Origin: an uncultured bacterium
GTDB taxonomy: Bacteria; Patescibacteriota; Kazan-3B-28
Direction: 5' to 3'
NCBI GenBank assembly: GCA_963695435.1
Contig: OY968788.1
Location: 280,004 to 344,003, forward strand
DNA: 64,000 nt
In this document: positions 20,409 to 59,036 of the stretch, piece after piece
Position numbering within the stretch: position 1 is the first letter of the stretch
Layout of the letters: the number at the start of each line of letters is the position of its first letter
Notes under the pieces: generated by a model
Databases searched by the model: none
Told to the model about the DNA's origin: nothing
What the model saw: the letters and a program-made list of their open reading frames with translations, nothing else
Position numbers and translations under genes: made by a program

Positions 20409-20484
20409 TTGTCATTCTGAATGTAATGAAGAATCTATAGTAATAATTTATTTATAGACCCTTCGACTACGCCCAGGATGACGA
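20409..20484. repeat. Imperfect-palindromic intergenic repeat (MITE/REP-like), copy A
   Basis: TTGTCATTCTGAATGTAATGAAGAATCTATAG...CCCAGGATGACG; shares its ends with five other copies. Confidence 0.7.
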
Positions 20485-20568
20485 TTATTGATGCGACTCC
20501 CCTACTTGGTGTGTTTAGGCGGTTTGACAATTACCGTATTTTTATTTGAAATAATTTTTATACGAAAA

Positions 20569-20612
20569 GAGCTAGGCGTTGTGTGATATTGCTACCACAC
20601 GCTGCCTAGCTC
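20569..20612 (-). terminator. Hairpin terminator for the minus-strand ORF 20659..21354
   Basis: gagctaggcg...gcctagctc stem, followed on the minus strand by an A/T-rich run TTTTCGTATAAAAATTATTT. Confidence 0.35.
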
Positions 20613-20658
20613 GTTGTGATTGTTGTTTCCCCTGCTTACTGAATAACAGGGATAAGGT

Positions 20659-21354
20659 TCATTTCCAGTGGGACGGTGTGTGTGGGCGCGAGCCTGCGAA
20701 TCTCCCACTTTCGTAATTGGGGGCTCGTCCCCCTTGGCCGGTTAAAACTGTAAGGGGGACCTTGGCGTTCGGATCTCGCATCATAACCTTTGCGACGGTG
20801 CAAAGGAAGGTCGATGCCGAGAAAACTTCGAACCTCATGCTATCCCCCTGCAAGTTTCCTCCCTCGGGGTCGGTCGCTCTAAAGAACAACCAATCCTTCG
20901 AGACTTCTTCATTGAGTTCGTTGTATTCTTTCTTCTTCTCACTCCATATGCGAGAAGTCCCAAGCCGAATTGGGATTTCTATCCCTGCAAGGTTGCCATT
21001 GAGAATTGCTTTGGCAGCCTTAAAGATTCTCACGGTCTGGAGGATTGTTTCCAAGTGTTCCCCACATCCGCCGAGGACACCAGATGTTTCTGAGAGGTCG
21101 AGACCAATCTTCTTGGAGAAGAATGGTATCTCCTCCATCGAGGCCTCGACTTTAAGGAGAGAATTGTCGCTCTTCTTCATCTTGCTGTGTCGTACAAGTG
21201 ACATAGCAATAACAAGTCCCTCGTAAGCAACGGTCTTAGTCTCATACAGTTTCGGTTCACCTTCCGGTTGGAAGATAACCTCAGCTGTTAGAAACTCAAC
21301 TATCTTTTCTATCTCCCTCTCCTGCCTAGTCTTCTTGATTGCGTCTGCGTACAT
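20659..21354 (-). CDS. Hypothetical protein
   Basis: 231-aa ORF with protein-like composition and a low-complexity GC-rich C-terminus. The overlapping plus-strand ORF 20717..21226 is judged spurious. Confidence 0.5.
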   Translation of the reverse strand: MYADAIKKTRQEREIEKIVEFLTAEVIFQPEGEPKLYETKTVAYEGLVIAMSLVRHSKMKKSDNSLLKVEASMEEIPFFSKKIGLDLSETSGVLGGCGEHLETILQTVRIFKAAKAILNGNLAGIEIPIRLGTSRIWSEKKKEYNELNEEVSKDWLFFRATDPEGGNLQGDSMRFEVFSASTFLCTVAKVMMRDPNAKVPLTVLTGQGGRAPNYESGRFAGSRPHTPSHWK

Positions 21355-21465
21355 TCGGAGTCCCCTTTGAAAATAAGATGTTCAGGTACAGCACATAGGC
21401 ATCCTTAGGCGGGAGTGCCTTATCACATTCGATACTACTAGATTTTTGGCTCCCAGTCAAGGAAA

Positions 21466-24400
21466 TCAGGCTGTTTGGCTGGAGCCGTTGCCGTTGTGGA
21501 TCTTGGAGACGATTTTAGTCAGTTCTTCCAGCCAATCACCCGCTAGGTCGGTGTGGTTGAATTTGATATCTTTCTCCCCTATTTGAAGAGTTGGGAGAAG
21601 TTTGATGACGGGTTCTAGTACTTTTGGTTTGAGTGGTTGGGTAAATTGAATAGTAATGGAATAAAGCGGCGGCAAATTACTTGGATTGAGGTTGCGGGCA
21701 GTGATGGAAGTAATTAGCTGGGTCGCTAACCCTGCAAGTTTCAATATTAATAGTTTCTTGAGATTGACTACTTCGGTCGGCAGTTTGCCATAATTTTCCT
21801 CAATTCGTTTAAATTCTTCCGTGAGCGCTGTTTCATTTTCAATAACGCCAAGCGTTTGGTAAATCTTCAGGCGCTGACTTTCCGCATCTACATATTTTAC
21901 TGGCAGGAATGCGCTGACAGGCAAATCGATTGTCACATCCGATACATCAATCTTTCGCCCGCTTCGCATTTCGTCAACTGCTTTATTGATGAGTTTGGTA
22001 TAAAGACTTAAACCGATAGCAGTAATGTGTCCATGCTGCTGTTTGGACAGAACTCCACCGGCACCGCGAATCTGCATATCACGCATTGCGATGTTATATC
22101 CGCTTCCAAGTTCTGTATTTTCCTGAATAGTTTTCAGGCGTTCCAGAGCACGTTCCGACATTTTGCCCTTGTTGTACATAAAAGTGGCATAAGCTTGGAT
22201 TTTCCCTCGTCCAATGCGTCCGCGAAGCTGGTGAAGTTGGGATAATCCAAATCTGCCTGCATCATCAACAATCAAAGTATTTACATTGGGGTTGTCGATA
22301 CCGTTTTCGATAATTGTAGAGGCAATCAAAACATCATATTTATGTGCGTCAAAATCTTGCATTATCTTTGCCAGCATTCGTTCGCCCATTTGACCATGAG
22401 CGTGAACGAACTTCACTTCGGGCATCAACTGTTCCAAGCGGTGTTGAACCGTATCAATAGTTTGAACGCGGTTGTGAACGAAATAAACTTGTCCGCTTCG
22501 GCGAACTTCCCGCTCAATTACCTCTTTGATGGTATTACTGCCGTATGGAACGACAGTTGTAATAATAGGAAGGCGGTTGGTGGGTGGAGTTTCAATTACG
22601 CTAATATCACGGATGCCTGAAAGCGCCAGATTTAGAGTTCTTGGGATTGGGGTGGCGGTAAGCGACAATACATCTACTTCGCTACGCAGAAGCTTCAGTT
22701 TTTCTTTGTGTGCCACACCAAAGCGTTGTTCTTCGTCTATAATAATGAGTCCAAGATTTTTGAAACGGATATCTTTAGAAAGTAATCGGTGGGTTCCGAT
22801 AACGATATTTACTTCACCCAGACGAAGCTGAACGACAACTTTGTCTTGTTCACTTTTTGATTTGAATCGACTTAGAGCGGCTATTTTTACATCAAAAGAC
22901 TGCAGGCGTTCAACAAAAGTTTTGTAGTGTTGTTCTACCAGAATAGTAGTGGGGGCAAGGATTGCCACCTGATATCCGGATGTAACGGCTTTGAAAGCGG
23001 CGCGGATTGCCACTTCTGTTTTTCCGAATCCCACATCAGCAACCAGTAATCTGTCCATCGGTTTATCCTTTTCCATATCGGCAAGGATTTCGTTGATGAC
23101 AGTTTCTTGGTCGGGAGTTTCTTGATAAATAAAAGAATCGGCAAGAGCTTTTTCCCACAACTCGTCAGAATCAAAACTAATTCCGCTATTCAGTTGGCGT
23201 TTCGCATACAAGTCCAGTAATTCTTTGGCAAATTTGTGAGATTCTTTTTTGATGCGGGTCATTACTCGCTTCCAAGATTGACTGGAGAGTCGAGTGAGTT
23301 GCGGTTCATGACCATCAACCGAAACATATTTGCTAATCTTGTCTATTTGATCTACGGGAACATAGAGCTTATCCCCTTTTGCGTATTCCAAAATAAGGTA
23401 TTCGCGTTCAATACCACTAAGATCAATTCGTTGAACATCTAAGAGGCGTCCGATACCGTGATCGTTGTGGACGATATAATCACCGCGTTGAATATCTGCC
23501 ATAAACATTCGTTGCTGTTTGTGGCTGGTTTTTGTATCAACTTGAGTGACGATAGAAAAAATCTCTTCGTCGGTTAGAATAATTAGTTTCAGAATCGGAC
23601 TAATTGTGCCAAGTCCTCCAACGGATGTCAGGAGAATTGGATTGTCGCCAACAGCTATATCAGCTTCTTTTAAGATTTGGGTGATTGATTTGGTCTTGTC
23701 TGTGGCAATCCCAATTTGCCAACCCTCTTTCAGATATTTTGAGATGTCTCGGGTAAGTCTGTCAATCTGAGAAGCGTAAATTGAAGGCGTCATAAATTCG
23801 AAATTCAGCTGTTTGATTTCGTCAGACGCGATGGTTTCTATTTTGACTAATGGAAGACGATCGAGTGCTTGGTTGAGTCCGACTAGTCCGACATTTTCAC
23901 TTGCCATAAACACTTCATAGAGCGACTGCAGGATATCCTCTGTGTGATCCATTATCACCAAATAATCCTGCTTGTGGTCATCAAGGAATTCAGCAAGGGT
24001 GGGAGCAAAGTTCTTAATCTTTAGTGCGGGAATCTCAATCCCCTCCTCAGTTCTTATTTTTTGTCCGCTAACAGGATTGAAATTGTAAATTTGTTCAATT
24101 TTGTTTCCATTGAAAGTTATTCGCCATGGATTATCTTGTCCGAGAGCAAAAATATCCACCACCTCTCCCCTACTGGCGACTTCACCAATTTGAAAAACCT
24201 TTACTTGTCTTTCAAACCCGAGTGCAACCAAATCTCCGACGAATTGTGTCAAAGATAATTCGTCACCAACAGATATTTTTAAACTGGTGGCAGGAGCGCT
24301 TAATGGTTCAATCAAATTACGGCTGGAAAATATTGTGAGAGCTTTGGGATGTGCCATATTTTCCCCAATTTTGATTCGTTGTTGAAAATTGGTGATGAAT

Positions 24401-24687
24401 TCCTGTCGATTGAACGCGTCAGAACGAATCGGCGGATAAATATTGGAATCTATTTTGAGCATGTCTTGCAGGAGTTTTTGGATTTTGAATTCTTCTTGCT
24501 CGTTTTTGGTAATAAAGATAATTGGCTTGTTCTGTTCTTTTTGCAAAGCTCCGAGCATCAAAACTCGCCCAAACTGGTTGAGTCCGGTAAGTGTGATGGA
24601 TTTGATGCCGGCTGTCTTCAGGAGGTTACGGAAAGGCTCTGTGTGAGCGAATTTTTCCAGCAGCAGTCGGTAGAAGGTTTCGTCCAC
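21466..24687 (-). CDS. mfd: Transcription-repair coupling factor
   Basis: UvrB-homology N-terminus, a CarD-like domain, superfamily-2 helicase motifs (GFGKTEVA, DEEQRFG) and a TRG motif. GTG start. Confidence 0.92.
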   Translation of the reverse strand: MDETFYRLLLEKFAHTEPFRNLLKTAGIKSITLTGLNQFGRVLMLGALQKEQNKPIIFITKNEQEEFKIQKLLQDMLKIDSNIYPPIRSDAFNRQEFITNFQQRIKIGENMAHPKALTIFSSRNLIEPLSAPATSLKISVGDELSLTQFVGDLVALGFERQVKVFQIGEVASRGEVVDIFALGQDNPWRITFNGNKIEQIYNFNPVSGQKIRTEEGIEIPALKIKNFAPTLAEFLDDHKQDYLVIMDHTEDILQSLYEVFMASENVGLVGLNQALDRLPLVKIETIASDEIKQLNFEFMTPSIYASQIDRLTRDISKYLKEGWQIGIATDKTKSITQILKEADIAVGDNPILLTSVGGLGTISPILKLIILTDEEIFSIVTQVDTKTSHKQQRMFMADIQRGDYIVHNDHGIGRLLDVQRIDLSGIEREYLILEYAKGDKLYVPVDQIDKISKYVSVDGHEPQLTRLSSQSWKRVMTRIKKESHKFAKELLDLYAKRQLNSGISFDSDELWEKALADSFIYQETPDQETVINEILADMEKDKPMDRLLVADVGFGKTEVAIRAAFKAVTSGYQVAILAPTTILVEQHYKTFVERLQSFDVKIAALSRFKSKSEQDKVVVQLRLGEVNIVIGTHRLLSKDIRFKNLGLIIIDEEQRFGVAHKEKLKLLRSEVDVLSLTATPIPRTLNLALSGIRDISVIETPPTNRLPIITTVVPYGSNTIKEVIEREVRRSGQVYFVHNRVQTIDTVQHRLEQLMPEVKFVHAHGQMGERMLAKIMQDFDAHKYDVLIASTIIENGIDNPNVNTLIVDDAGRFGLSQLHQLRGRIGRGKIQAYATFMYNKGKMSERALERLKTIQENTELGSGYNIAMRDMQIRGAGGVLSKQQHGHITAIGLSLYTKLINKAVDEMRSGRKIDVSDVTIDLPVSAFLPVKYVDAESQRLKIYQTLGVIENETALTEEFKRIEENYGKLPTEVVNLKKLLILKLAGLATQLITSITARNLNPSNLPPLYSITIQFTQPLKPKVLEPVIKLLPTLQIGEKDIKFNHTDLAGDWLEELTKIVSKIHNGNGSSQTA

Positions 24688-24691
24688 TGTC

Positions 24692-24720
24692 TTGACGAAA
24701 ATGAATTATTCTGGTATAAT
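24692..24720 (+). promoter_or_regulatory. Strong sigma-70-like promoter TTGACG-17-TATAAT facing an ORF-less region
   Basis: ttgacg at 24692-24697, a 17-nt spacer, tataat at 24715-24720. Confidence 0.45.
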
Positions 24721-24938
24721 AGGGAGAAAAGTAAATGAAAAATCTGGGCGCATAGGCAGCAGAATCTTGGTCACAATAAGATTTGCGAACAGGATTCTCC
24801 CTGCTTATTCCGATCGGTATCCCACCCTTTGAATTTACTTTTAAGGGTCTTGGTAAAAAGCCTCACGGCTGATACCGAAAACTGTGGGGAGAACTACGGC
24901 AAAGGGAAGGGTCACTTCTTCCTTTTGCTTATATAAAC

Positions 24939-25448
24939 CTACAGGTCTTCAAGCAACAAATCAACAACTTCGTTGAAAGCGGGTTTCAGCTCGGTCATTT
25001 GGGTTTTTGTGAAAGGTTCCAGAACATAATCGGTGACAGAATCGGAAGTAGGTCGGCCGATGCCGATTCTTATTCTGGCGATTGAATCAGTTTTCAAATT
25101 CTCAATAACGGATTGCATGCCGTTGTGTCCCCCACTACTGCCGGATTTACGGGAACGAATTGCGCCAAGCGGAAGATCCAAGTCGTCATATACCACTACA
25201 ATGTTTTCGGTTGGGACACCGAAATACTTGGCTACCTGCGCCACAGCTCTACCTGAATTATTCATAAAACTAGTCGGTTTGGCAATGATTATTCCTTGTC
25301 CTTCCGCCAGCTCTGTTTCAGTACGAGTATGTTTTTTAAATTTCAGCTTTAGTTTTTTGACTAGTAAATCAGCAACCATTCGCCCGATATTGTGGCGAGT
25401 TGATTCATATTTTTTACTGGGATTACCGAGTCCGATGATTAGTTTCAT
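24939..25448 (-). CDS. pth: Peptidyl-tRNA hydrolase
   Basis: MKLIIGLGNP...H...D catalytic residues typical of Pth. Confidence 0.9.
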   Translation of the reverse strand: MKLIIGLGNPSKKYESTRHNIGRMVADLLVKKLKLKFKKHTRTETELAEGQGIIIAKPTSFMNNSGRAVAQVAKYFGVPTENIVVVYDDLDLPLGAIRSRKSGSSGGHNGMQSVIENLKTDSIARIRIGIGRPTSDSVTDYVLEPFTKTQMTELKPAFNEVVDLLLEDL

Positions 25449-25450
25449 TT

Positions 25451-25675
25451 TTAGGATTCTTCTTCGCGGAGATTCTCATTTCTTAGTTCTTCTTCTATGC
25501 GCTGGGCTTCTTCAAGTTTTATTCGAGCTTCTTCGGAAATTTCAACAGTGTCTTCAATATTTTCTGTTTTTGAAAACGGCTGCCGATTGTGAAGGTCATT
25601 GGCAGTTTTCTCAATTTTCGAAACGGCTCGAACCGGTCGCCGTTCGCGACTAGTTCCAGAAATTCTTTCTATCAT
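25451..25675 (-). CDS. Small charged hypothetical protein
   Basis: 74 aa, E/R/K-rich, 2 nt downstream of the next gene; likely co-transcribed with pth. Confidence 0.4.
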   Translation of the reverse strand: MIERISGTSRERRPVRAVSKIEKTANDLHNRQPFSKTENIEDTVEISEEARIKLEEAQRIEEELRNENLREEES

Positions 25676-25677
25676 AT

Positions 25678-25923
25678 TTACGCGTAGACTTCAGTACCTT
25701 CTTTGAGTGATTGATTGACCTTTATGCCAACCACATCACCCTTCTTGGCGGAATCGACTGAAGCGTGCTCGATTTGAATCGATTCGATGGTTTCGGTCTT
25801 CTCGTCCTCACCTTTTTTGAAGGTGACTGTGTCTCCGACTTTTAGACCACCGTCCAAATCGATTATGGCAACGCCAATCTTGTCGTAGAAGTGTACGACT
25901 TTACCGATTTTTTTACCTGCCAT
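25678..25923 (-). CDS. Small beta-barrel-like hypothetical protein
   Basis: 81 aa, with VGDTV...GDVVGIKV motifs reminiscent of translation-factor beta-barrel domains. Confidence 0.45.
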   Translation of the reverse strand: MAGKKIGKVVHFYDKIGVAIIDLDGGLKVGDTVTFKKGEDEKTETIESIQIEHASVDSAKKGDVVGIKVNQSLKEGTEVYA

Positions 25924-25968
25924 TTTGCCCTCCTAAATGGTTAGGATATGACGGATATATTATACACC

Positions 25969-25986
25969 AAGGGGAGAATTCCCCTT
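25969..25986. promoter_or_regulatory. Perfect 7-4-7 palindrome AAGGGGA-GAAT-TCCCCTT, an operator-like site
   Basis: It begins 5 nt upstream of a minus-strand TATAAT (25959-25964) that precedes the 25923 start. Confidence 0.35.
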
Positions 25987-26198
25987 CAACCCCATTTTTA
26001 TGTTTGTTTTTTGTTTTCGAACGCAAGCTGGCGTTCAATCCAGCGGTACTTTCTTCTTGGAGAAAGTACCCAAAGCCGTGGCCTGTGTTCGCTCGGTCTG
26101 TTTATTGGATAAATCACCTTACCGCTTAAAGGGCAAACTCGTCGCTTGCCAGCTCCTCAAACATGCCCCCGCGACGGTAATTTATCTCAATTCAATAC

Positions 26199-26215
26199 GA
26201 CCTCGCTCCAATGGC
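26199..26215. repeat. 17-bp direct repeat GACCTCGCTCCAATGGC, copy 1
   Basis: Identical 17-mer recurs at 26829-26845; together they flank a small gene cassette. Confidence 0.6.
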
Positions 26216-26297
26216 CGGAGGGGAAAGCGACAATGGCGGATGGAAGAAGCTGACGTAATTTGCTCGATGGGATTAAAGACAAAAGGGAATAAAAAAG

Positions 26298-26315
26298 CCC
26301 CCATGACCCTGGGGG
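26298..26315 (-). terminator. Intrinsic terminator for the minus-strand ORF 26365..26751
   Basis: ccccca-tgaccc-tggggg stem, with A6 on the plus strand, which is T6 after the stem on the minus strand. Confidence 0.5.
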
Positions 26316-26364
26316 TTGAGCCTATTTGCCCCGGCTCGGTTCCAGCTGATGCTGGTAAGGGGTG

Positions 26365-26751
26365 CTACGAAAGTAGCGGGTCATAGTCCTGTTTCTGGGG
26401 ATCATACCGGCAAAGGACACCAGTTACGAAACCTTGATAGGTATCGTAGGTACATCGGCCATACCAGAGACCGTTAGCACCGCGGTGCAAGTCGAAATGA
26501 ATACTACGGCAGTTTTCGTCTTTGTCAAAAACTAAGCTTTCACCGCTAATGTAATGACCTTCGATCGTGCCGCCAGATGGTCCACCTTCCCAGGTTCCAC
26601 GTAAGAATGTACCAGAATCGTAAAGCTTATGAACTTCGAAGACACACTGGAAGGGCGTTAACGGACTGGGATCCCAGCCAACATAACTGCTGTGTATTCC
26701 AAAGAACAGAAAAGTTTCCGTATAGAGATCCAATTTCCACCTCCTTTGCAT
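26365..26751 (-). CDS. Hypothetical W/G/Y-rich small protein
   Basis: 128 aa. It has its own TTGACA-18-CATAAT promoter and a downstream terminator. There is no SD and no signal peptide. Confidence 0.45.
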   Translation of the reverse strand: MQRRWKLDLYTETFLFFGIHSSYVGWDPSPLTPFQCVFEVHKLYDSGTFLRGTWEGGPSGGTIEGHYISGESLVFDKDENCRSIHFDLHRGANGLWYGRCTYDTYQGFVTGVLCRYDPQKQDYDPLLS

Positions 26752-26788
26752 AGTGCTTGGGGTTCTCTAGAATTTTCAAGGTGGGTAC

Positions 26789-26818
26789 ATTATGTTCTGG
26801 GCAGGGCTGGAATGTCAA
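26789..26818 (-). promoter_or_regulatory. Near-consensus promoter TTGACA-18-CATAAT on the minus strand
   Basis: On the plus strand, tgtcaa at 26813-26818 and attatg at 26789-26794. Confidence 0.45.
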
Positions 26819-26828
26819 ATTGATTACA

Positions 26829-26845
26829 GACCTCGCTCCAATGGC
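26829..26845. repeat. 17-bp direct repeat GACCTCGCTCCAATGGC, copy 2
   Basis: See copy 1. Confidence 0.6.
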
Positions 26846-27002
26846 GGATTGAGAGAGAAAAGGTTGATTGGGATAAGGGTTTTGGGGTATGGTGAGGCGT
26901 TAGGTGGATCCTGTAATTTTTAGGAAATACCCCACCAGCACCTTGAGACTTAAGAGATCTAATTTCTAAAGCCCGCGAGGTGTGACATAAAGGAGAGACT
27001 GG

Positions 27003-27698: not shown

Positions 27699-27720
27699 TA
27701 TCGTGATCTTTGAGTTAATT

Positions 27721-27754
27721 GGGCGGGCACTTCGGTGCTCGCCCTTTTCGTTTT
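27721..27754 (+). terminator. Rho-independent terminator with a UUCG tetraloop
   Basis: gggcgggcac-ttcg-gtgctcgccc, a 10-bp stem with one G-U, followed by TTTTCGTTTTG. Confidence 0.6.
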
Positions 27755-27781
27755 GTATTGTTACTCTCTATTTTCTAATCT

Positions 27782-29125: not shown

Positions 29126-29134
29126 ATCTATATC

Positions 29135-30064: not shown

Positions 30065-30185
30065 GATGGAGTAATGAGTTATGAGTTACGAGTAATGAGT
30101 GAAAGACAGTTTGCAGTAAGTAGTTTGTAGTGAGTAGAAAATGTCGCCGCAGACGACCACCGATATTTGCTGATTTGCAGATTTT

Positions 30186-31782: not shown

Positions 31783-31788
31783 AAAAGG

Positions 31789-47686: not shown

Positions 47687-47694
47687 AAGTGTTT

Positions 47695-47833: not shown

Positions 47834-47870
47834 AGAAAATGGATGCACAATTAGGAGAACGGCCGTTTAG

Positions 47871-50044: not shown

Positions 50045-50227
50045 CCCGCTAGAAATCTTAGCTTGATATAACTCATATCTGGTTCATCTTGGTTCAGACT
50101 GCCCGTTTTCTAGATTTCTTACGGGACAGGTATCTTATATTTGGCAGTTATCCCCTTCTTCAATTATGATGGTGAAGACTCACTGTAACAACTGGACCCT
50201 CCAGATGTACAGTATTCTTCATTGTAG

Positions 50228-51675: not shown

Positions 51676-52444
51676 TAGGAGGTTTGGGCAATTCGCTCGC
51701 TCCACCAAAATCATCTCCTTTCACCTCGGGCTGACTAATCAGCTCTCCTTGTATTACCAAACGACGAAGATTGGTACCGACTGGTGTGCATGTCATTAGA
51801 GTGATGGTTGGCTCGGCAGTCTGCGCCAAAATCTCCACCTGACTGGGCTGGACGACAAAATTTTTATTTACCCGATAGACAAATTTTTTACTTTGATAAT
51901 AAATATAAACCAAATCGCCTTCGGTTAGTTTGTTGAGGTTGGCAAAAACTTGATTATATTTTCCACCGCTCCACCAGTAATATGAGCTGTGACCGGTTAG
52001 AAAAGTATTGCCGTTTTGCCCCGGCATTGCGGTGTCGAAATAATGTCCGACACCATTTTGGATTTCTTCAATAATTGTGGTGTTGTCAGTAGTATTCAAA
52101 TAAATAATCGGCGCGTCAACATTGATTTTGGGGATTACGATGCTGTCTTGGGCAAATAATGATGTTCGCTGATCAAAAAGAGTGGTGACATTGTTGATGT
52201 TGGCGGTGTTGTTATCGACCGCAACTGGCAAATCGTATTTATCCGAATAATTATTGGTCGGTTTGCTCCACAAATAAGACAGCTGGGAATAATAGGTCGG
52301 TCCCATTACAATCAGCACGAGAACGGCGAAGAAGAAAACAAATAACCCCAGGAATTTCAAAACTTCCACCCACCACCTGCGCGGTTGATGTTGCGGGTTG
52401 GCGACAAACCAGTTAGATTGGGGCTGACTAGGGAGAGTGTACAT
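51656..52444 (-). CDS. Sortase family transpeptidase
   Basis: N-terminal TM; catalytic His (TGHSSYYW) and a TLxTC motif (TLMTCTP). Confidence 0.8.
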   Translation of the reverse strand: MYTLPSQPQSNWFVANPQHQPRRWWVEVLKFLGLFVFFFAVLVLIVMGPTYYSQLSYLWSKPTNNYSDKYDLPVAVDNNTANINNVTTLFDQRTSLFAQDSIVIPKINVDAPIIYLNTTDNTTIIEEIQNGVGHYFDTAMPGQNGNTFLTGHSSYYWWSGGKYNQVFANLNKLTEGDLVYIYYQSKKFVYRVNKNFVVQPSQVEILAQTAEPTITLMTCTPVGTNLRRLVIQGELISQPEVKGDDFGGASELPKPPTILPLY

Positions 52445-52490
52445 CTAGATAGACAAATGGACGATAGACTAATGGACAAATAGACAAAAC
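52445..52490. repeat. Tandem GTCTAT/GTCCAT heptamer array abutting the sortase start codon
   Basis: On the sortase strand, TTGTCTATTTGTCCATTAGTCTATCGTCCATTTGTCTATCTAG is immediately followed by ATG. Confidence 0.6.
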
Positions 52491-52496
52491 AAGAAA

Positions 52497-52895
52497 CTAG
52501 GAGATTTTTTGGGAGAGTTGTTCGTAAGTGAGGGCTCCTGACTCATGGCTGCCATCGGCAAATACCCAAGTTGGGTAGCCTCCGATTTTGGCATCGATGC
52601 AGGCTTGGATTTGTTTGTTGGGGTCTTTGGCGTCAGCACATTCAATATAAGTGACATACTGAAAAGCCGTGCCGAACATTGTTTTTTGTTCCTGACAATG
52701 AGTGCACCAAGAAGCACCATACATTTTGGCGCCTTTGGCAGTAAGAGCTTTTGCCAAAGCAGTCCATTTGTCTTCGACTTGAACTTGATTTTGATCGTTA
52801 GTTGAATTGTTTGAGGGAGTTTTGTGATTAGTTACTGCCAACACAGTAAGAGTTGCGATAATGACTAGCAGAATTAGCCAAGAGATTTTTTTCAT
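52497..52895 (-). CDS. Membrane-anchored thioredoxin-fold thiol-disulfide oxidoreductase
   Basis: N-terminal TM and a WCTHC CxxC motif. Start at MKKISW; the ORF-track extension overlaps tRNA-Leu. Confidence 0.7.
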   Translation of the reverse strand: MKKISWLILLVIIATLTVLAVTNHKTPSNNSTNDQNQVQVEDKWTALAKALTAKGAKMYGASWCTHCQEQKTMFGTAFQYVTYIECADAKDPNKQIQACIDAKIGGYPTWVFADGSHESGALTYEQLSQKIS

Positions 52896-52910
52896 ACTGT
52901 GATTGTAGCA

Positions 52911-52994
52911 TGGTGGCCGAGGAGAGACTCGAACTCTCAAGGGTTGCCCCACACGATTTTGAGTCGTGCGTGTATACCATTCCACCACTCGGCC
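52911..52994 (-). tRNA. tRNA-Leu (anticodon CAA), long variable arm, CCA encoded
   Basis: Acceptor ggccgag/ctcggcc, anticodon stem cacga/tcgtg with loop ctCAAaa, variable stem ggg/ccc, T arm gagag-ttcgagt-ctctc. Confidence 0.85.
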
Positions 52995-53007
52995 TTGTCA
53001 GAATAAA

Positions 53008-54222
53008 TTATAAAAGAATCGGGAATTTTTTTGTTAAATCTGTCACGCGTTTTTTCGCTTGTGATAGTACTGCTTTATTGGTCGGTTTGTCCAGCACATC
53101 ATTGATGATAGATGCCACTTCCGCCATCTCCGCTTCTTTCATTCCCCGAGTGGTGATTGATGCCACTCCTAGTCTAATCCCTGACGGATCAAACGGACTA
53201 CGCAAATCACCTGGCACCATATTTTTGTTGACGATAATCCCCGCCTTCTCCAACGCTTGCTCTGCTTCCAAGCCAGTAATCTTTTTATTGGAAAGATTTA
53301 TTAGAACCAAGTGGGTATCAGTACCGCCTGTCACCAATTTGAAACCAAACTGAATAAGGTTGGTCGCCAACATCTTTGCGTTAGTGACGATTTGTTTGGC
53401 GTATTTTTTGAATTCCGGCTTACTCGCCTCTTCCAGACAAATTGCTTTGGCGGCGGTGATGTTATCGTGAGGGCCGCCTTGAATGCCAGGGAACACCGCT
53501 TTATCAATTGGTGAAGCGAGAGTTTTTTTACACATAATTATTGCACCCCTCGGCCCGCGCAGAGTTTTGTGAGTGGTTGTCATTACAATATCGGCGTGCG
53601 GGAAAGGTTGCGGGTGAACTCCGCCAGCAATTAGTCCCGCGATATGCGAAATGTCCGCCACTAAATATGCGCCGACTTGTTTGGCGATTTTTGCGAAACG
53701 AGCAAAATCAATTGCCCGCGGATAGGCGGTGGCACCACAGACGATAATCTTCGGTTTGAAGATTTTTGCCATTGTTTCAATTTCGTCGTAATTCAAAAGA
53801 CCAGTGGATGAATCAACACCGTATTGAATGAACTTATACGCTTGTCCCGAAAAATTGACCCGATGCCCGTGGGTTAGGTGCCCGCCATGAGCCAAACTCA
53901 TTCCCATCACCGAGTCGCCAAAATCCAGCAAAGCGGTATAAATGGCGATATTGGCAGGACTGCCTGAATAGGGCTGGACATTGGCATGTTCCGCCTTGAA
54001 GAGCTTCTTGGCGGCCTCAATTGCCTTATTTTCTACCTCATCAATAATGTCATTCCCGCCATAGTAGCGCTTCCCAGGGTAGCCCTCGGAGTATTTGTTC
54101 ATCAAAACCGAGCCCGCTGCCTCTCTGACAGCTGAACTGGCTATATTTTCAGAGGCAATCAGGGACAGGGTATCCTGCTGACGCTTTGCCTCCGCCTCGA
54201 TAAGCTGGGGAATCGTTTTCAT
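53008..54222 (-). CDS. glyA: Serine hydroxymethyltransferase
   Basis: PLP-lysine region TTTHKTLRGPRG and a conserved SHMT N-terminus. Confidence 0.92.
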   Translation of the reverse strand: MKTIPQLIEAEAKRQQDTLSLIASENIASSAVREAAGSVLMNKYSEGYPGKRYYGGNDIIDEVENKAIEAAKKLFKAEHANVQPYSGSPANIAIYTALLDFGDSVMGMSLAHGGHLTHGHRVNFSGQAYKFIQYGVDSSTGLLNYDEIETMAKIFKPKIIVCGATAYPRAIDFARFAKIAKQVGAYLVADISHIAGLIAGGVHPQPFPHADIVMTTTHKTLRGPRGAIIMCKKTLASPIDKAVFPGIQGGPHDNITAAKAICLEEASKPEFKKYAKQIVTNAKMLATNLIQFGFKLVTGGTDTHLVLINLSNKKITGLEAEQALEKAGIIVNKNMVPGDLRSPFDPSGIRLGVASITTRGMKEAEMAEVASIINDVLDKPTNKAVLSQAKKRVTDLTKKFPILL

Positions 54223-54246
54223 AGTACTATTGTACCTTATCCAATC

Positions 54247-54377
54247 TTGTCATTCTCGACCCTCCTTTGTTGTCATTCTGAGTGGAGCGAAGAATCTAAA
54301 ATATTATAGATCCTTCGGTCGCCTAGGCGACCTCGAGGATGACAGAGGGTAGATCCTGAAATGAATTCAGGATGACG
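54247..54377. repeat. Intergenic palindromic repeat, copy E, same subtype as D
   Basis: Partial TTGTCATTCTCGACC followed by TGTCATTCTGAGTGGAGCGAAGAATCTA...CCTCGAGGATGACAGAGGGTAGATCCTGAAATGAATTCAGGATGACGG. Confidence 0.7.
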
Positions 54378-54440
54378 GTAAAAAGGGGCGATTGCGGGGA
54401 GGGGCAAAAAAAGCTATACTACGACTGATTTTTCTCTCTT

Positions 54441-55730
54441 ATGGAAATGACTAAATACGCATTTTTGCTGGGGTCCCATCCATTGATGAGCTTCTTGGAA
54501 ATTTTGAACGTGCTGGATGTGGAGAAAATTCCCAAAGGGCCTTACACCCGCACTGGTGAGGATATTTTGATTATTCCGTTGAAACTGACTGACGCGAAGC
54601 TGAATAAACTTCAACAGCTGCTTGGCGGGACGATAAAGATCATTGAAATCGTAGATGAGTTTGACGGAACGATTTTCCAAGTCAGCCGAGTGCTGACACC
54701 GGAGACTTTGATTGCCAAGTACTTTGCCCAATCGGAAAGTAAGATTAACTTTGGATTTTCCGTTTATTCCATCAATCATCTGGTGTATTCGGAGATAAAC
54801 TGGCTTCGCAATTTTGCCTACCAAATAAAACGCCGATTCAAATCGAATTACAGCATTCGGTATGTTGACGAAAAGAACTTTGAACTCTCTTCTGTAATGG
54901 TGGTGAACAACAAATTGGTTGAAACTGGTGCGGAAATTGTCATTATCAAGCAGGATAAGAATTTCAAGATTGGACGAACTCGGACGGTGCAGGATTTTCG
55001 TAGTTACGCTCATCGAGATATGGAAAAGCCCAGCCCGAACCCGAAGTCAGGGATGCTCCCGCCAAAATTAGCGCAGATTATGCTAAACCTGACACGGGAC
55101 AATCGGCATAAGCAAATCTTTGACCCGTTTTGTGGAAGCGGGATTATTTTGCAAGAAGCGATTTTGCTGGATTTGGATATTTTAGCTTCGGACATTGATG
55201 AAGATGCGGTGAAATCGACTGAAGATAATTTGGCGTGGCTAATCAAAACACATAACGCCGCCGCACCGAAATTGGGGTATGAAAAAATCAAGACATCAAA
55301 ATTGACCAGCCGAATTAGGTTGGCTGACGCTACTCGGTCGCGTTGGATAAAGGCAAATCAGTCGGATGTTTGTGTGGTGACTGAACCATACTTGGGGCCT
55401 CCGCAAAGAGGACCGATACTACTTCACCACGCAAAGAATATCGCTCAAGAGCTGGAGCAACTTTATGTCGGGTTTTTTGAGAATCTAAATAAGAACTACG
55501 GAAAGATTGATAAAGTTGGTTTTGTTTTGCCTGTACTGAAAACCAACGAAGGACTTTTGTATATGAATGTGCTGGAGCGCATCAAGGAACTTGGATTCAC
55601 ACCAAAACAATTCCTGCCGGCAGAAGCGGCAAAGAAAGAGGCATTAGCGACCCACCGCGGAGGATTGCTCTACGCCCGTCCAGACGCCTTCGTCCTACGG
55701 GAAATCTTCGTGTTCGAGAAAAAATCTTGA
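54441..55730 (+). CDS. THUMP-type SAM-dependent RNA methyltransferase (Trm11/RlmL-like)
   Basis: Motif I DPFCGSGIILQEA and a motif IV-like VTEPYLGPP. Confidence 0.7.
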   Translation: MEMTKYAFLLGSHPLMSFLEILNVLDVEKIPKGPYTRTGEDILIIPLKLTDAKLNKLQQLLGGTIKIIEIVDEFDGTIFQVSRVLTPETLIAKYFAQSESKINFGFSVYSINHLVYSEINWLRNFAYQIKRRFKSNYSIRYVDEKNFELSSVMVVNNKLVETGAEIVIIKQDKNFKIGRTRTVQDFRSYAHRDMEKPSPNPKSGMLPPKLAQIMLNLTRDNRHKQIFDPFCGSGIILQEAILLDLDILASDIDEDAVKSTEDNLAWLIKTHNAAAPKLGYEKIKTSKLTSRIRLADATRSRWIKANQSDVCVVTEPYLGPPQRGPILLHHAKNIAQELEQLYVGFFENLNKNYGKIDKVGFVLPVLKTNEGLLYMNVLERIKELGFTPKQFLPAEAAKKEALATHRGGLLYARPDAFVLREIFVFEKKS

Positions 55731-55897
55731 CGCTCTCCACCAGATACGGTAATCTGTCGTAGTTAGTGTTTAATGTTTTATCGGGGTCCCCGAGGCAAAC
55801 CAACGAAGTGTTTGGCTTGGGGAGAGGAGAAATCCTTGAACCCCAAAAGGCGAGAAGAGAATACGCCTCGCCGTTAAAGTGAAAGGATTTAGACGAG

Positions 55898-56176
55898 ATG
55901 GCCCATGTAAAAGCCGCCGGTACATCTAAAAACCTCAAAGACTCCAAGCCAAAGATGCTCGGGGTCAAGGTGTATGGAAATCAATACGCGAAAGCGGGTG
56001 ATATTATCGTTCGCCAGCGGGGTCAGAAATATCGCGCGGGTGAAAACACATTGATGGGCAGGGACCATACCGTGTTTGCTAAGGTTGCCGGTAAGGTAGA
56101 TTTCCAAGTGAAGCGGGTACGCAAAAATGGTGTAGGACACGCAACTGCGACCTACATTAGTGTGGTGACGAAGTAG
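55898..56176 (+). CDS. rpmA: 50S ribosomal protein L27
   Basis: [12 protein letters not shown]...[13 protein letters not shown]...GRDHTVFA. Confidence 0.92.
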
Positions 56177-56203
56177 TATCTAGTATCTAGCATCTAGCGA
56201 AGA

Positions 56204-56226
56204 GAGGCGCCGAAGGGCGTTTTTTG
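56204..56226 (+). terminator. Intrinsic terminator after rpmA
   Basis: cgcc-gaag-ggcg stem followed by TTTTTTGTTTG. Confidence 0.45.
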
Positions 56227-56251
56227 TTTGCTAATTTTTAGACAAGAAAAA

Positions 56252-56287
56252 ACCGCCGTGAGAAAGGGATCGAACCTTTCTCCGGCG
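56252..56287 (-). terminator. Long hairpin followed by T6 on the minus strand
   Basis: ccgccg-t-gagaaagg-gatcgaa-cctttctc-cggcgg. The loop resembles a tRNA T-loop, but no tRNA can be built. Confidence 0.5.
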
Positions 56288-56461
56288 GCTGAATGTGCAC
56301 TTAATCATCTTGTCACCCCTAAATAGCGGCAAGCCAAGACCAGCCCCAAGATGATAATTGTCAGTAGCGATGATGAACAGCCTGGCAAGCCGGTCCAAAT
56401 TGGCTCCGGTATTGTTGGCTTTACAGTGCCGGGTGGCAGTGGATCGTTTGGCAATTCCTGT

Positions 56462-57187
56462 TCATTTTTGCCTTTCACTTCGCACCTCGCTCCAACGCTT
56501 GCCCTTGATGAGAGCCTCTTCGTATTTCCTAGCCAGTATGTCGGGATTCTCTATAGCCGTAAGAGTAGCGTCAAGCTTCCCTAGCCAAACTGAAATCCAC
56601 GCAAAGAGTAGGCTGTACAAAACTCTATCGATTGTTTGCGCGGTCGAGTATGTCGGCTGCAACAGCAGCAAGAACCATACTCCGTAAATGGCTAACCCCA
56701 TCGTCCACACCAATAAATCCTTGGTGATTTGGGATTCCAAAATGTCCCTCATTTCAACCCACCCGCAGAATTCGTCTCGGTTGAAGAGGTATTCCAGCGA
56801 CAGATAACAGCGTGCCAATAGAAAGCCGATGAACGCCAAAATTGCCGCCGCTAACAACCAAAGCAGATACCAAGACAAATGGCCGTTCCACCATTGGTTC
56901 ACGGATACCCCGATCATCGCCCAGGCTCGAGTAATGATACCGCCGACAACCCAAGCGACTACGAGGTAGATGGGACCGGAGGCTTCAGCCCACCAGTTAG
57001 GAACCAGTAGACCAAAGAGAATGATCACTGCTACAAGAGCGATTAGCCACACCCACGACGGAATTTGTACTGGCAGCCATAAAATGGCTGCCCAGATTAA
57101 TCCACCTATGGCAAGCCACCCGGTGGATATCCAGAAACGTTTAGCCGACATCGCAACCCCCAAATAATAAATTCGCCCCAATGTCAA
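56462..57187 (-). CDS. Polytopic membrane protein, hypothetical
   Basis: 241 aa with at least six hydrophobic helices, W-rich. Confidence 0.5.
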   Translation of the reverse strand: MTLGRIYYLGVAMSAKRFWISTGWLAIGGLIWAAILWLPVQIPSWVWLIALVAVIILFGLLVPNWWAEASGPIYLVVAWVVGGIITRAWAMIGVSVNQWWNGHLSWYLLWLLAAAILAFIGFLLARCYLSLEYLFNRDEFCGWVEMRDILESQITKDLLVWTMGLAIYGVWFLLLLQPTYSTAQTIDRVLYSLLFAWISVWLGKLDATLTAIENPDILARKYEEALIKGKRWSEVRSERQK

Positions 57188-57248
57188 AGAGCAGGAGCGT
57201 AGAGTCTAGTATCCCTGATTTTCAGCTACCAGTCAACGAAAGGAGAAA

Positions 57249-58919
57249 TTAGAAAATTGGCTGATTCTCATGGATGGGTTCAGGGACGCTATCAATCAAT
57301 GAAGTAGAGCGGATGACGGCGCCGATGAAGTCGCGGAATAGCGGATGGGGACGATTGGGACGAGACTTGAATTCGGGATGGAATTGCGATGCCACAAACC
57401 ACGGGTGGTCTCTTAGTTCAATTATTTCTACCAGTTCGTTGCTGGGGGAAACACCCGACAAAGTCATCCCGGCAGATTCAAAATTTTGACGGTAAAGATT
57501 GTTGAATTCATAGCGATGGCGATGGCGCTCGGAAATTTCCGAAAGCTGATAGGCAAGTTGAGCGCGAGAATTTGGCCGCAGTATGGCAGGATAAGCGCCC
57601 AACCGCATCGTGCCGCCTTTATCCAAAATAGTTTTTTGATATTCCATAATGTGAATAACCGGGTAAGTGGTGTTTTCGTCAAACTCCGTACTATGGGCAT
57701 CCTGCCAGCCCAAAACATTACGAGCGAACTCAATCACCGCGATTTGCATCCCTAAACACAGACCCAAATACGGAATTTTATTTTCGCGGGTGTACTGGGC
57801 GGCTTTGATTTTCCCTTCTATCCCCCGAACTCCAAATCCGCCCGGCACTACATAGCCATCACAACCGCTCATAATTTCGGCAACATTGGCAATAGGGTTG
57901 CCCAATTCTTCCGCGTCAATCCATTTTAGATTTACATCTACATTGTGATACCAACCGGCGGCGCGTAATGCTTCAAAAATACAAATGTAAGTGTCTTCCA
58001 TCGTGGTATATTTTGCGACAATGCCGATGTTGAGTTTGCGTTTGTCTGATTTGATTTTCCCGACTAACTCACGCCATTCCGCCAATTTTGGTTCAGTCGG
58101 CGTCAGACCCAACCGTTCTTCAATCACTTTCCCGATGCCGAAGTTTTCCAATGTCAGAGGCACCTCGTAAACGGTGTCAGCGGTTTGGAGAGGGACAACA
58201 TTAGTTACTGGCAAGTTTGCCGCGCGGGCGATTTTTTCCAATCCCACTTGCGGAATCGGGTGATCAGCGCGACAAAAAATGGCATCTGGAGAGATGCCAA
58301 TCCCCTGCAATTCGCGGATGCTAAATTGCGCCGGACGGGTTTTTAGCTCTTTAGTGACGCCCAGATAAGGCAGGAAAACTGTGTGACAATACATTACGCT
58401 GTTCGGGCCCAAATCATGTCTCATCTCACGAATTGCTTCCAAAAAATGAAATCCTTCATGGTCACCGACCGTCCCTCCAACTTCCACCACCGCAATATCC
58501 GCTCCGATTTTTTGGGCACCGTTAATGATGATCTCTTTCACCACATTGGTCAGATGTGGGATTACCTGCACAGTTTTGCCCAAGAAGTCTCCCCTGCGTT
58601 CACGGGCAATTACATCACTGTAAATACGACCGGTCATAATAGAAGAATCTTTGGTCAGATTTTCATCAACAAATCTTTCATAGTGTCCTAAATCCAAATC
58701 AGTTTCCGCACCATCATCTGTCACAAAAACTTCGCCATGCTCCCCTGGGTTCAGAGTTCCCGCGTCATAGTTGATGTATTGGTCGAGTTTCTGCATAAAA
58801 ATCTTATATCCGCGCGCTTTTAGGATGTTACCAATAGATGCGGCTGTAATTCCTTTGCCAAGACCCGACAACACGCCCCCTGTTACGAAAATGAATTTTA
58901 TTGGTTTCAAATCATTCAT
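57249..58919 (-). CDS. pyrG: CTP synthase
   Basis: N-terminal synthetase domain (FVTGGVLSGLGKG) and a C-terminal glutamine amidotransferase domain (GLCLGMQ). Confidence 0.92.
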   Translation of the reverse strand: MNDLKPIKFIFVTGGVLSGLGKGITAASIGNILKARGYKIFMQKLDQYINYDAGTLNPGEHGEVFVTDDGAETDLDLGHYERFVDENLTKDSSIMTGRIYSDVIARERRGDFLGKTVQVIPHLTNVVKEIIINGAQKIGADIAVVEVGGTVGDHEGFHFLEAIREMRHDLGPNSVMYCHTVFLPYLGVTKELKTRPAQFSIRELQGIGISPDAIFCRADHPIPQVGLEKIARAANLPVTNVVPLQTADTVYEVPLTLENFGIGKVIEERLGLTPTEPKLAEWRELVGKIKSDKRKLNIGIVAKYTTMEDTYICIFEALRAAGWYHNVDVNLKWIDAEELGNPIANVAEIMSGCDGYVVPGGFGVRGIEGKIKAAQYTRENKIPYLGLCLGMQIAVIEFARNVLGWQDAHSTEFDENTTYPVIHIMEYQKTILDKGGTMRLGAYPAILRPNSRAQLAYQLSEISERHRHRYEFNNLYRQNFESAGMTLSGVSPSNELVEIIELRDHPWFVASQFHPEFKSRPNRPHPLFRDFIGAVIRSTSLIDSVPEPIHENQPIF

Positions 58920-58928
58920 TTGTTTTCT

Positions 58929-59036
58929 TTTGTCATTCTGAATGTAATGAAGAATCTATAAGAAAATTATTATTTTAGATCCTTCGATTCGCTCTGCTCG
59001 CTCAGGATGACACTGCGTGTCATTTATAGATTCTGG
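58929..59036. repeat. Intergenic palindromic repeat, copy F
   Basis: TGTCATTCTGAATGTAATGAAGAATCTATAAG...CTCAGGATGACA plus a rearranged fragment GTGTCATTTATAGATTCT that overlaps the last five codons of alr. Confidence 0.7.

Follow-up and report, generated by a model that had tools for sequence, protein, structure and literature searches.

Six short inverted repeats, here called A to F, are dispersed through a 64,000-nucleotide stretch of DNA from an uncultured bacterium of the Patescibacteriota lineage Kazan-3B-28 (assembly GCA_963695435.1, contig OY968788.1, positions 280,004 to 344,003, forward strand). This whole stretch is referred to as the window and coordinates are counted from its first base. 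An earlier note on the sequence had described the repeats as a palindromic, intergenic family resembling repetitive extragenic palindromic (REP) sequences or miniature inverted-repeat transposable elements (MITEs). All six are present where that note placed them, and every one is intergenic. We consider it probable that they are gene-less head-to-head dimers of the Ssn-related motif (SRM), within the CGTC/TGTC-tagged REP superfamily, the autonomous form being a small GIY-YIG nuclease gene, ssn, held between two modules. The superfamily and its partner enzyme have been described already; this is not a new kind of repeat.

Every copy is a head-to-head arrangement of modules (6/6) and the left/right polarity is the same throughout, with an ATTCT-type left arm and an ATCCT-type right arm. 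The 14-nt left end, TGTCATTCTGARTG, has six exact matches in the window, on the + strand each time. Allowing up to two mismatches gives nine matches against 1.15 expected, a number that none of 100 shuffles reached; the three extra matches come from B, C and F, whose right arms match on the - strand. Six copies is far beyond chance. The earlier list of six is also complete, since a covariance model built from foreign sequences (see below) adds no further strong copy in the window.

Copy A (20410-20483, + strand) is a head-to-head dimer lying between a GT2 glycosyltransferase gene (19474-20310, +) and a convergent open reading frame (ORF; 20659-21354, -). The left module (20410-20438, +), TGTCATTCTGAATGTAATGAAGAATCTAT, scores 43.3 bits in the covariance model (E 1.7e-8); the right module (20455-20483), reverse complement CGTCATCCTGGGCGTAGTCGAAGGGTCTA, falls under the threshold. 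Copy B (31709-31782, +), again a head-to-head dimer, has its left module at 31709-31737 and its right module at 31754-31782 (47.7 and 46.8 bits). It is placed upstream of a class II aminoacyl-tRNA synthetase gene (30186-31580, -) and starts 7 nt past the stop codon of an ORF at 31789-32109 (-). Copy C (35661-35734, +; modules at 35661-35689 and 35706-35734, 47.6 and 46.9 bits) is found between an ORF at 35744-36088 (-) and a cupin gene (35228-35626, -). The near-identity noticed earlier between B and C amounts to 99% over 75 nt and ends exactly at TGTCA...TGACAA.

Copies D and E are composite. Copy D (47695-47832, +), between genes for a GT4 glycosyltransferase (47871-49025, -) and WecG/TagA (46823-47686, -), comprises a left module (47695-47723), a right module with a long apical hairpin (47738-47775), a reverse module with a wholly Watson-Crick stem (47784-47811) and a terminal half-module, TTCAGGATGACG (47821-47832). 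Copy E (54248-54377, +) occupies the divergent spacer of glyA (53008-54222, -) and a methyltransferase gene (54441-55730, +). It starts with a half-module, TGTCATTCTCGA (54248-54259), and the linker CCCTCCTTTGT, followed by a left module (54271-54299), a right module with a long apical hairpin (54307-54344) and an extra reverse Watson-Crick module (54350-54377). The extended right arm attributed to both is indeed common to them, at 87% identity. Copy F (58931-59012, +) is a head-to-head dimer between alr (59020-60225, -) and pyrG (57249-58919, -), with a left module at 58931-58959 (44.9 bits) and a right module with enlarged apex at 58976-59012 (28 bits, E 1e-4). What had been taken for a rearranged fragment of F (59016-59036) is the last codons of alr (..RIYK and the stop), kept in relatives without the element. 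The repeats had also been said to lie usually at gene 3′ ends or between tandem genes, a description that does not suit E, which lies between divergent genes. No mobilising gene is present within the window, in agreement with the non-autonomous nature first proposed.

The single arm as a hairpin module

The repeat unit is the single arm, a self-contained hairpin module of about 29 nt, and not the whole palindrome. Position statistics set its limits at T-GTC-ATTCT-GA-NNGNANN-GA-AGAAT-C-T-C, with 5′ flanks that are unconserved and poor in G. From 5′ to 3′ the module consists of an unpaired YGTC tag, a lower stem of 5 bp, a tandem G·A/A·G, a 2-bp stem with a GNA triloop, an invariant C after the stem and then a short tail (CTA). 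Lower stems are ATTCT/AGAAT on left arms and of ATCCT/AGGAT type on right arms. A longer apical hairpin can replace the GNA mini-hairpin, as it does in the right arms of D, E and F. All 12 arms of A to F carry the YGTC tag and the post-stem C. The tag is TGTC in every left arm and, among right arms, in those of B, C, D (inner), E (inner) and F; it is CGTC in the right arm of A and the outer mini- or half-modules of D and E. All stems begin with AT. Among 494 modules collected with the tail unconstrained, the ten commonest tails (476 modules) all start with C; GTC is preceded by T in 420 modules and by C in 37.

The apex is exactly GCGNAGC in 250 of 378 apices of seven nucleotides, and the window copies mostly have the A/T variants ATGTAAT and GTGAAAC. 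GCGNAGC is an extraordinarily stable, nuclease-resistant DNA mini-hairpin (Hirao et al.), found at priming origins on single-stranded DNA (ssDNA; review PMC13037366). The work on d(GCGNAGC) deals with the same apex as that of the canonical module, as a biophysical motif and not as a repeat family.

Pairing is kept across the apex variants (GCGNAGC, ACGNAGT, GTGNAAC and ATGNAAT) and across the stem variants (ATTCT/AGAAT, ATCCT/AGGAT, ACCCT/AGGGT and ATTCC/GGAAT). In an alignment of 115 distinct modules, all foreign to the window, 97% of cells are paired and compensatory double changes occur at all seven base pairs (86 cells against 19 in shuffles, with the observed value reached in none of 500). 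The signal collapses in slid-alignment controls. A covariance model built from this alignment alone and then run on the window retrieves eight arms at E≤2e-8 (best 1e-9), namely all the left ones and the right ones of B and C, with weaker matches to the right arms of F (1e-4) and E (0.013).

The window copies can be compared with the CGTC-tagged REPs, members of which are Neisseria dRS3 and Rickettsia RPE-4 and RPE-6 (Di Nocera, De Gregorio, Rocco 2013, BMC Genomics 14:522, PMC3733652). In that group the tag is 'changed to TGTC in many repeats', with CCTC also found, the stems start A-T, T-A and are followed by a short tail, and the repeats are intergenic, mostly head-to-head dimers, rarely tail-to-tail, with no dedicated transposase (PMC3733652). 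The tag, the AT stem start, the short unpaired tail, the head-to-head dimers, the intergenic location and the absence of a transposase are all shared with the window copies. The families described have 8-9 uninterrupted base pairs (at most one mismatch), loops of 4-5 nt and a CCA tail, and come from five phyla, mainly Alphaproteobacteria (PMC3733652), whereas the module has 5 bp, G·A/A·G and 2 bp, a 3-nt loop, a CTA/CTC tail and a range of about 18 phyla among the matches listed. Its stem is not of the 8-9-bp kind, which places it outside the four described CGTC-REP families; the overall span, 9+3+9, is the same.

The range was established in two collections. A scan of IMG/VR with GTCATTCTGARYGNANYGAAGAATC gave 114 viral stretches, where the 25-mer stands alone, in tandem arrays or in head-to-head pairs over variable spacers. 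The same pattern applied to one-genome-per-species GTDB contigs gave at least 120 stretches, the phyla being counted by record title. Those listed include, within the Patescibacteria, Paceibacterota, Saccharibacteria and Gracilibacteria, together with Chloroflexota, Acidobacteriota, Bacteroidota, Ignavibacteria/Chlorobi, Nitrospirota, Nitrospinota, Planctomycetota, Verrucomicrobiota, Omnitrophota, Armatimonadota, Fibrobacterota, Spirochaetota, Bacillota, Actinomycetota, Caldisericota, Desulfobacterota and Pseudomonadota. The module is also present on cyanobacterial, Hymenobacter and Granulicella plasmids. Of 250 modules in the 120 listed genome loci, 89% are intergenic. Pairs in these loci are head-to-head (58), tail-to-tail (17) or tandem (22), the flanking genes are convergent (49), co-directional (42 and 40) or divergent (33), and the modules display no orientation bias relative to them.

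Several loci, cited here by L numbers, show further arrangements. Related phage contigs (SPP1-like portal, HK97-type capsid) carry repeated intergenic modules, often a few nucleotides upstream of the ribosome-binding sites of structural genes (L004, L011, L018, L019, L042, L046, L049 and about 20 more viral loci). In L184, from the cultured Bacteroidota isolate Pedobacter nototheniae, five tandem composite units of about 135 nt lie between convergent genes (3500-4130). Each is made of a half-module, a full module, a spacer and a reverse module, a cluster similar to the bacterial interspersed and neisserial intergenic mosaic elements (BIME/NIME). Half-modules, comprising the tag, the 5′ half-stem and a pyrimidine-rich linker of about 9-12 nt, are reiterated one to three times outside full modules, mirrored at the other end of the unit and with a 23-nt period in Planktothrix. 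Examples occur in the window (54248-54270 and 47812-47832), L238 (3676-3719), L236 (3503-3534), L266 (16564-16586 and 2364-2427), L184 (3510-4060) and L285 (95-140, 735-790 and 870-935). The reiteration looks like stuttering at element ends, and the literature consulted offers no explanation for it. Literature searches with the literal sequence returned unrelated primers only. The small dispersed repeats of cyanobacteria (Elhai 2008) were weighed and rejected; a citing paper describes them as restricted to Nostocaceae.

Are the hairpins kept for a role in RNA, as transcript terminators, processing sites or stabilisers? The earlier note favoured a terminator or processing site on the grounds that G-T appositions would make the hairpin more stable as RNA from one strand. 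Five of the six copies lie in probable co-directional or convergent transcription units, the dimers fold well as RNA (z -4 to -7 for A-E) and RNA roles of tagged REPs were favoured by Di Nocera 2013 from location and G-T pairs (PMC3733652). The asymmetry between strands is not borne out, however. Whole dimers fold significantly on both strands, as DNA or RNA, and RNA folding places the two strands within 2.4 kcal/mol of each other in five copies; only D differs (-52 versus -38.3). No copy is followed by a U-run on the transcribed strand, the sequence that follows the elements on the - strand being A-rich, and none is terminator-like. The 50 terminator-like sites called in 20000-36500 and 47000-59500 include none that coincides with a copy. 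Copy E lies in a divergent promoter region, and the lack of orientation bias in the 120 genome loci also argues against transcripts as the seat of function. Rfam at gathering thresholds identifies only three tRNAs in the window, and permissive searches yielded nothing meaningful around D (E≤10) or in four module-rich loci (E≤1). In addition SsnA, the Neisseria nuclease introduced below, does not bind the RNA form of its motif (PMC11893778). An RNA-level element is thus unlikely; side effects on mRNA are possible. A hammerhead-like or k-turn (box C/D-like) reading of CUGA...GAAGA was also tried and discarded, as the core has neither the hammerhead NGA nor the k-turn bulge and snoRNA matches are insignificant.

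Module-flanked ssn genes and their probable gene-less remnants

The relevant enzyme is known from Neisseria. The Neisseria Transformation Sequence (NTS; CGTCATTCCCGCGMAVGCGGGAATCYRG) is a repeat of 28 nt that includes dRS3. SsnA, a single-domain GIY-YIG protein of 94 amino acids, binds it only in the ssDNA form (PMC11893778). SsnA cuts a few nucleotides upstream of NTS and shows no activity on double-stranded DNA (dsDNA), RNA or the reverse strand; cutting requires GTC before the palindrome and binding requires the C after it (PMC11893778). In Neisseria the system restricts transforming DNA that bears NTS (PMC11893778). Across phyla ssnA genes are typically flanked by SRMs, defined as directional hairpins of 20-50 nt, and activity on such motifs has been shown for the Neisseria and Wolbachia homologues (PMC11893778). 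For more than 200 SRMs, ssn was present in 81% according to the same study. The module family shares with SRM/Ssn (Chenal et al. 2025, Nat Commun 16:2388) a directional hairpin of about 28 nt whose palindrome is immediately preceded by GTC and followed by C, a stem that starts ATTC and ends GAAT, and many intergenic copies. It shares too, in the relatives of this organism (the window copies being gene-less), a single-domain GIY-YIG gene product of about 94-95 amino acids flanked on both sides. The differences are in the stem, here A/T-rich with tandem G·A and a GNA triloop or variable apical hairpin in place of a perfect GC-rich 8-bp stem, and in the hosts, here a small-genome lineage, many other phyla and phages.

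Nine loci contain a module-flanked gene for a GIY-YIG protein of about 95 amino acids (L238, L236, L266, L117, L132, L176, L181, L097 and L285). Five were fetched only for containing the module and have ORFs of 93-102 amino acids between two modules: L117 and L132, from metagenome-assembled genomes (MAGs) of Saccharibacteria and Gracilibacteria, L176 (Lutibacter), L181 (an Ignavibacteriales MAG) and L097 (viral). In L285, Planktothrix agardhii plasmid NZ_LR882964.1, the left arm flanking ssn is the same 27-mer as in window copies B and C. L238, L236 and L266 are three of the closest relatives (82-86% pyrG identity) among 49 metagenomic relatives gathered via pyrG, in which the gene order gyrB-alr-pyrG-...-methyltransferase-glyA-...-GT4-WecG is conserved. 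Where a parent insertion sequence (IS) had been envisaged, the parent is instead this Ssn-type gene flanked by the motif.

The proteins are assigned to Pfam GIY-YIG (PF01541) with E 4e-19 to 6e-15 and are 38-53% identical to the gonococcal SsnA region (pairwise E 5e-21), which is itself NTS-flanked. Tyr6, Tyr19 and Glu66 of the L238 protein are the equivalents of residues mutated in SsnA (Tyr6, Tyr17 and Glu64). NCBIfam gives only sub-threshold matches of the Ssn-like proteins to group-I-intron endonucleases, and PADLOC has no model that matches them. In every ATTCTGA-armed unit inspected (L238, L117, L176 and L181) the ATTCT-type arm is on the start side of ssn; the far arm of L238 and L117 is of ATCCT type, which is the left/right polarity of the six window copies. 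Arm type appears to track nuclease clade, with L236, L266 and Neisseria in one group and L238, L117, L285, L132 and L176 in the other. The arms are structured, directional SRM/CGTC-REP modules that are physically tied to Ssn genes in this lineage and in others.

We note the setting of two of these loci. The L285 ssn unit, with multiple dimers (18450-19498), sits in a defence island between a type IIL MmeI restriction-modification gene and DISARM drmA. The gonococcal ssnA locus is in PLSDB entries NZ_CP119142.1 and NZ_CP119140.1, 2.17-Mb Neisseria gonorrhoeae records filed as plasmids that are evidently chromosomes.

The identity of the enclosed gene bears on a second alternative, that the copies are REPINs, REP doublets mobilised by a REP-associated tyrosine transposase (RAYT), a domesticated IS200-like Y1 enzyme (Bertels & Rainey 2011, PMC3116915; Nunvar 2010, PMC2817692). 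The architecture is the same, two inverted REPs giving a larger hairpin and acting as the replicative unit alongside singlets and clusters. So are recognition of an ssDNA hairpin, insertion without target duplication, typical of ssDNA transposition, and the GCGNAGC apex present in some enterobacterial REPs. The tag, however, is YGTC rather than GTAG, and the flanked gene encodes a GIY-YIG nuclease rather than a Y1 (HUH) transposase. No Y1 transposase was found near modules in the 234 loci covered, and no RAYT is flanked by CGTC repeats (Di Nocera 2013, PMC3733652). RAYT systems are largely inherited vertically within Proteobacteria. We judge it very unlikely that these copies belong to a REPIN-RAYT system.

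How the window copies relate to the module-flanked genes is indicated by their spacers. The L238 unit minus its ORF leaves ...GAAGAATCTAGACCGTAGGTCGC / CGCTTCGCTAGATCCTTC..., and every base of this remainder can be aligned to the B and C spacers. The spacer of B, ACCGAAGGTCGCTACG, is homologous to the inner ends of that unit, and the alignment of B and C with L238 reads GAAGAATCTAGACCG[A/T]AGGT ... CGCT[A/T]CGCTAGATCCTTC. To judge from this alignment, B and C correspond to an ssn unit that has lost its gene and kept both ends.

Orthologous junctions in the relatives reveal the same process. At pheS|pheT there are five states: empty, with stop and start 1-4 nt apart (L237, L242 and L245); occupied by a full ssn unit (L236, 3503-3900, and L238, 3676-4100); occupied by ssn without its middle (L266, with an intact copy elsewhere); holding a gene-less dimer (L247); and reduced to a minimal two-tag palindrome (L239). 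This slot has been colonised twice, since the nucleases of L236 and L238 share only 40% identity and their arms are of different types, dRS3/NTS-like ATTCCCGCGAAGGCGGGAAT in L236 as opposed to ATTCTGA...GAAGAAT in L238. At alr|pyrG, the slot of F, the gap is 3-31 nt in 14 relatives; dimers are present in the window (F), L236, L237 and L238, and L266 and L279 have two inverted heptamer arrays instead. The E slot (78-86 nt) is element-free in L235, L266, L237, L236 and L239. L239 and L246 have no element in the D slot, which in L237 contains a dRS3-like dimer. The dimers are what is left after gene loss, and sites gain and lose them. The description as a REP- or MITE-like intergenic family is upheld by the empty D, E and F sites and by the 99% identity between B and C, copies at different loci; this identity suggests recent copying of the gene-less dimer.

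Does this make the repeats classical MITEs, that is, internally deleted forms of an IS with a DDE transposase, with arms that are simple terminal inverted repeats recognised as dsDNA, and mobilised in trans by the parent IS? The overall shape fits, with two inverted ends, a short interior, intergenic location and no coding capacity, as does polymorphic presence among relatives. Like the MITEs Correia/NEMIS, Nezha and RUP, the copies are short, non-coding, inverted-repeat-bounded derivatives of a gene-carrying parent, with possible outward promoter-like hexamers. Those MITEs have DDE-transposase parents, target-site duplications and arms that are not independently structured modules, whereas here there is no target-site duplication at A-F or between filled and empty orthologous sites, and the arms self-pair with compensatory variation and occur alone and in tandem. 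When 6,865 ORFs of the 234 module-bearing loci were clustered all against all, no shared transposase emerged, only phage structural and housekeeping families, and the gene between the arms is that of a GIY-YIG nuclease. The proposal of a non-autonomous repeat stands; that of plain terminal inverted repeats does not, the arms being hairpin modules also found alone, in tandem and in arrays in many phyla. The classical MITE explanation is largely refuted and we give it almost no chance.

The shared junctions raise another alternative, in which the palindromes are immobile and unrelated to Ssn, either DNA sites selected by the host for a nucleoid, topoisomerase or recombination protein or the product of local palindrome formation, and ssn inserted into sites that were already there. 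The presence of two ssn lineages, 40% identical, in one pheS|pheT junction would be compatible with ssn as the invader, and the unrelated palindromic heptamer arrays that occupy the same slots in other relatives imply that such junctions may attract palindromes generally. It is nevertheless difficult to account for near-identical sequences of 27-29 nt in unrelated phyla and phages unless there was transfer, the inner sequence that B and C have in common with the ssn unit is lineage-specific, and the partly deleted ssn of L266 gives the direction, from full to gene-less. We regard host-selected or locally formed sites as very unlikely.

The repeats also affect assembly. Short-read (Logan) contigs with identical alr and glyA, apparently from the same organism, break within about 50-90 nt of repeat-adjoining genes, from which it follows that the repeats fragment short-read assemblies. 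One such contig, in which alr is identical, extends from 48 nt upstream of pheT to 89 nt past alr; its breaks hint at repeats at both ends and a unit just past the end of the window.

Other features of the window

A module-like perfect hairpin, GTCATCCTGAAATTTGTTCAGGATCT (19640-19671, - strand), lies in the coding region of the GT2 glycosyltransferase domain and scores 14.3 bits (E 0.26). It reads GTCATCCTGAA-ATTTG-TTCAGGATCT and shows 82-86% similarity to the additional reverse modules in D and E. This is probably a chance resemblance, although it may be an old intragenic insertion.

Short tandem heptamer arrays occupy many intergenic spacers of the window. They are formed by GTAATGA (13974-13989, 14422-14451 and 30069-30100), ATAGACA (31583-31610 and 52449-52488), TAGAGAA (31668-31698 and 63876-63906, and inverted at 27762-27788) and TAGTATC (56174-56197). 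Over 31662-31705 the TAGAGAA array directly abuts copy B, and heptamer runs are found beside the module in unrelated viral contigs also (L020, L063, L073 and L051). The arrays may be a second palindrome-forming intergenic filler or may be linked to the modules.

The outward end of the ATTCT arm provides a -35-like hexamer (TTCACT or ATGACA) suitably spaced from a -10 in the flank. Candidate hybrid promoters are at 35649-35676, 20387-20415 and 54226-54253, all on the - strand. The candidate -10 hexamers, which are consensus matches only, include TATAAT upstream of the cupin gene (10/12) and AATAGT upstream of glyA (9/12). The arms could in this way form hybrid outward promoters, as in some MITEs.

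Beside copy D, a hairpin CACAATTAG-CTAAACGGCCGTTCTC-CTAATTGTG (47846-47879, -) spans the stop codon of the GT4 glycosyltransferase gene. L239 keeps its loop (AACGGCCGTTCTC), with a stem that differs and is still self-complementary (CTACAG...CTGTAG). The hairpin is a conserved structure separate from copy D.

GC skew is near +0.2 in the part with + strand genes and near 0 in the part with - strand genes (1-20000 compared with 20001-64000). This suggests a component of replication strand beyond coding-strand bias, with 44 kb of housekeeping genes possibly head-on. All six repeats, of one polarity, are inside this 44-kb block; the skew analysis is too ambiguous to tie element polarity to the direction of replication.

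Proposed mechanism and significance

How might such elements multiply? When DNA becomes single-stranded in replication, repair or uptake the module would fold, and an Ssn-family nuclease of about 95 amino acids and a single GIY-YIG domain would bind the folded module and nick just 5′ of the tag. The Ssn acting on the window arms would be encoded elsewhere in the same genome. In a head-to-head dimer a forward module would stand at the 5′ side of each strand, which would make the unit cuttable at both of its ends. Cutting together with host repair or replication would then copy or remove the unit. On this model the window copies would be internal-deletion derivatives of module-ssn-module, analogous to MITEs, that are copied or retained in the intergenic slots of a small genome. 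That the Ssn of this organism binds and cuts these arms we infer by analogy, the biochemistry coming only from the Neisseria and Wolbachia homologues (PMC11893778), and Ssn would likewise be what spreads the dimers.

A number of points weigh against the assignment to gene-less SRM dimers. There is no ssn gene within the 64-kb window, where tblastn detects only the GIY-YIG domain of UvrC. The published SRM pattern, HGTCWYN(0-2)YYVSBRHN(0-5)WNVSBRGN(0-2)RNCYNB, has no match in the window. Neither the canonical module nor the window arms of A and B conform to it, while NTS and the dRS3-like arm of L237 do. As the pattern was derived from the GC-rich stems of 29 genomes, the mismatch lowers the fit to the operational definition of an SRM and not the homology. 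Nearest-neighbour DNA energies of single arms are only -0.8 to -1.6 kcal/mol, no better than shuffles, so that the structural case rests on covariation; nearest-neighbour parameters may not credit sheared G·A pairs and GNA loops. A dimer could alternatively form one long hairpin, of -8 to -16 kcal/mol as DNA. The G·A-type motif is only a putative Ssn substrate. A mobile origin for the IS-like NTS-ssnA-NTS layout has been hypothesised only (Chenal 2025, PMC11893778). Finally, the deletion series represents decay in place, and it is only the identity of B and C that argues for copying of the gene-less dimers themselves.

What is new here is the G·A/GNA subtype, its very wide range that includes phages, its escape from the published pattern and the comparative evidence for insertion, decay and copying in trans. 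In annotation, the repeats and the many small spurious ORFs that they spawn can be labelled as Ssn-related hairpin dimers and not as unknown MITEs, and breaks in short-read contigs of this lineage are explained by them. The SRM/Ssn pairing is extended to an A/T-rich, G·A-interrupted subtype in phages and about 18 phyla among the matches listed, and the ssDNA-cutting tools put forward in PMC11893778 thereby gain new candidate pairs of enzyme and site.

A more far-reaching proposal, which we advance tentatively and rate at rather less than an even chance, is that module-ssn-module constitutes a distinct class of very small mobile element. Its sole protein would be a GIY-YIG ssDNA nickase of about 95 amino acids; it would insert without target duplication into tight, T-rich stop/start junctions, cross between phyla and phages, and decay to gene-less head-to-head dimers that are still copied in trans. 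If so, the spread of CGTC/dRS3-type REPs with 'no dedicated transposase' would be explained, and cut-and-repair would have left its footprints in the half-modules reiterated at element ends. The G·A/GNA subtype would be the most widespread class of SRM, yet one outside the published search pattern, and the window would record recent activity, since B and C, two separate loci, are 99% identical.

The comparative evidence, namely a single junction found empty, full, half-deleted and gene-less, a slot shared by two ssn lineages, and copies B and C that correspond to a unit minus its gene, indicates that ssn units insert, decay and leave dimers behind. This bears directly on how CGTC/dRS3-type REPs multiply.

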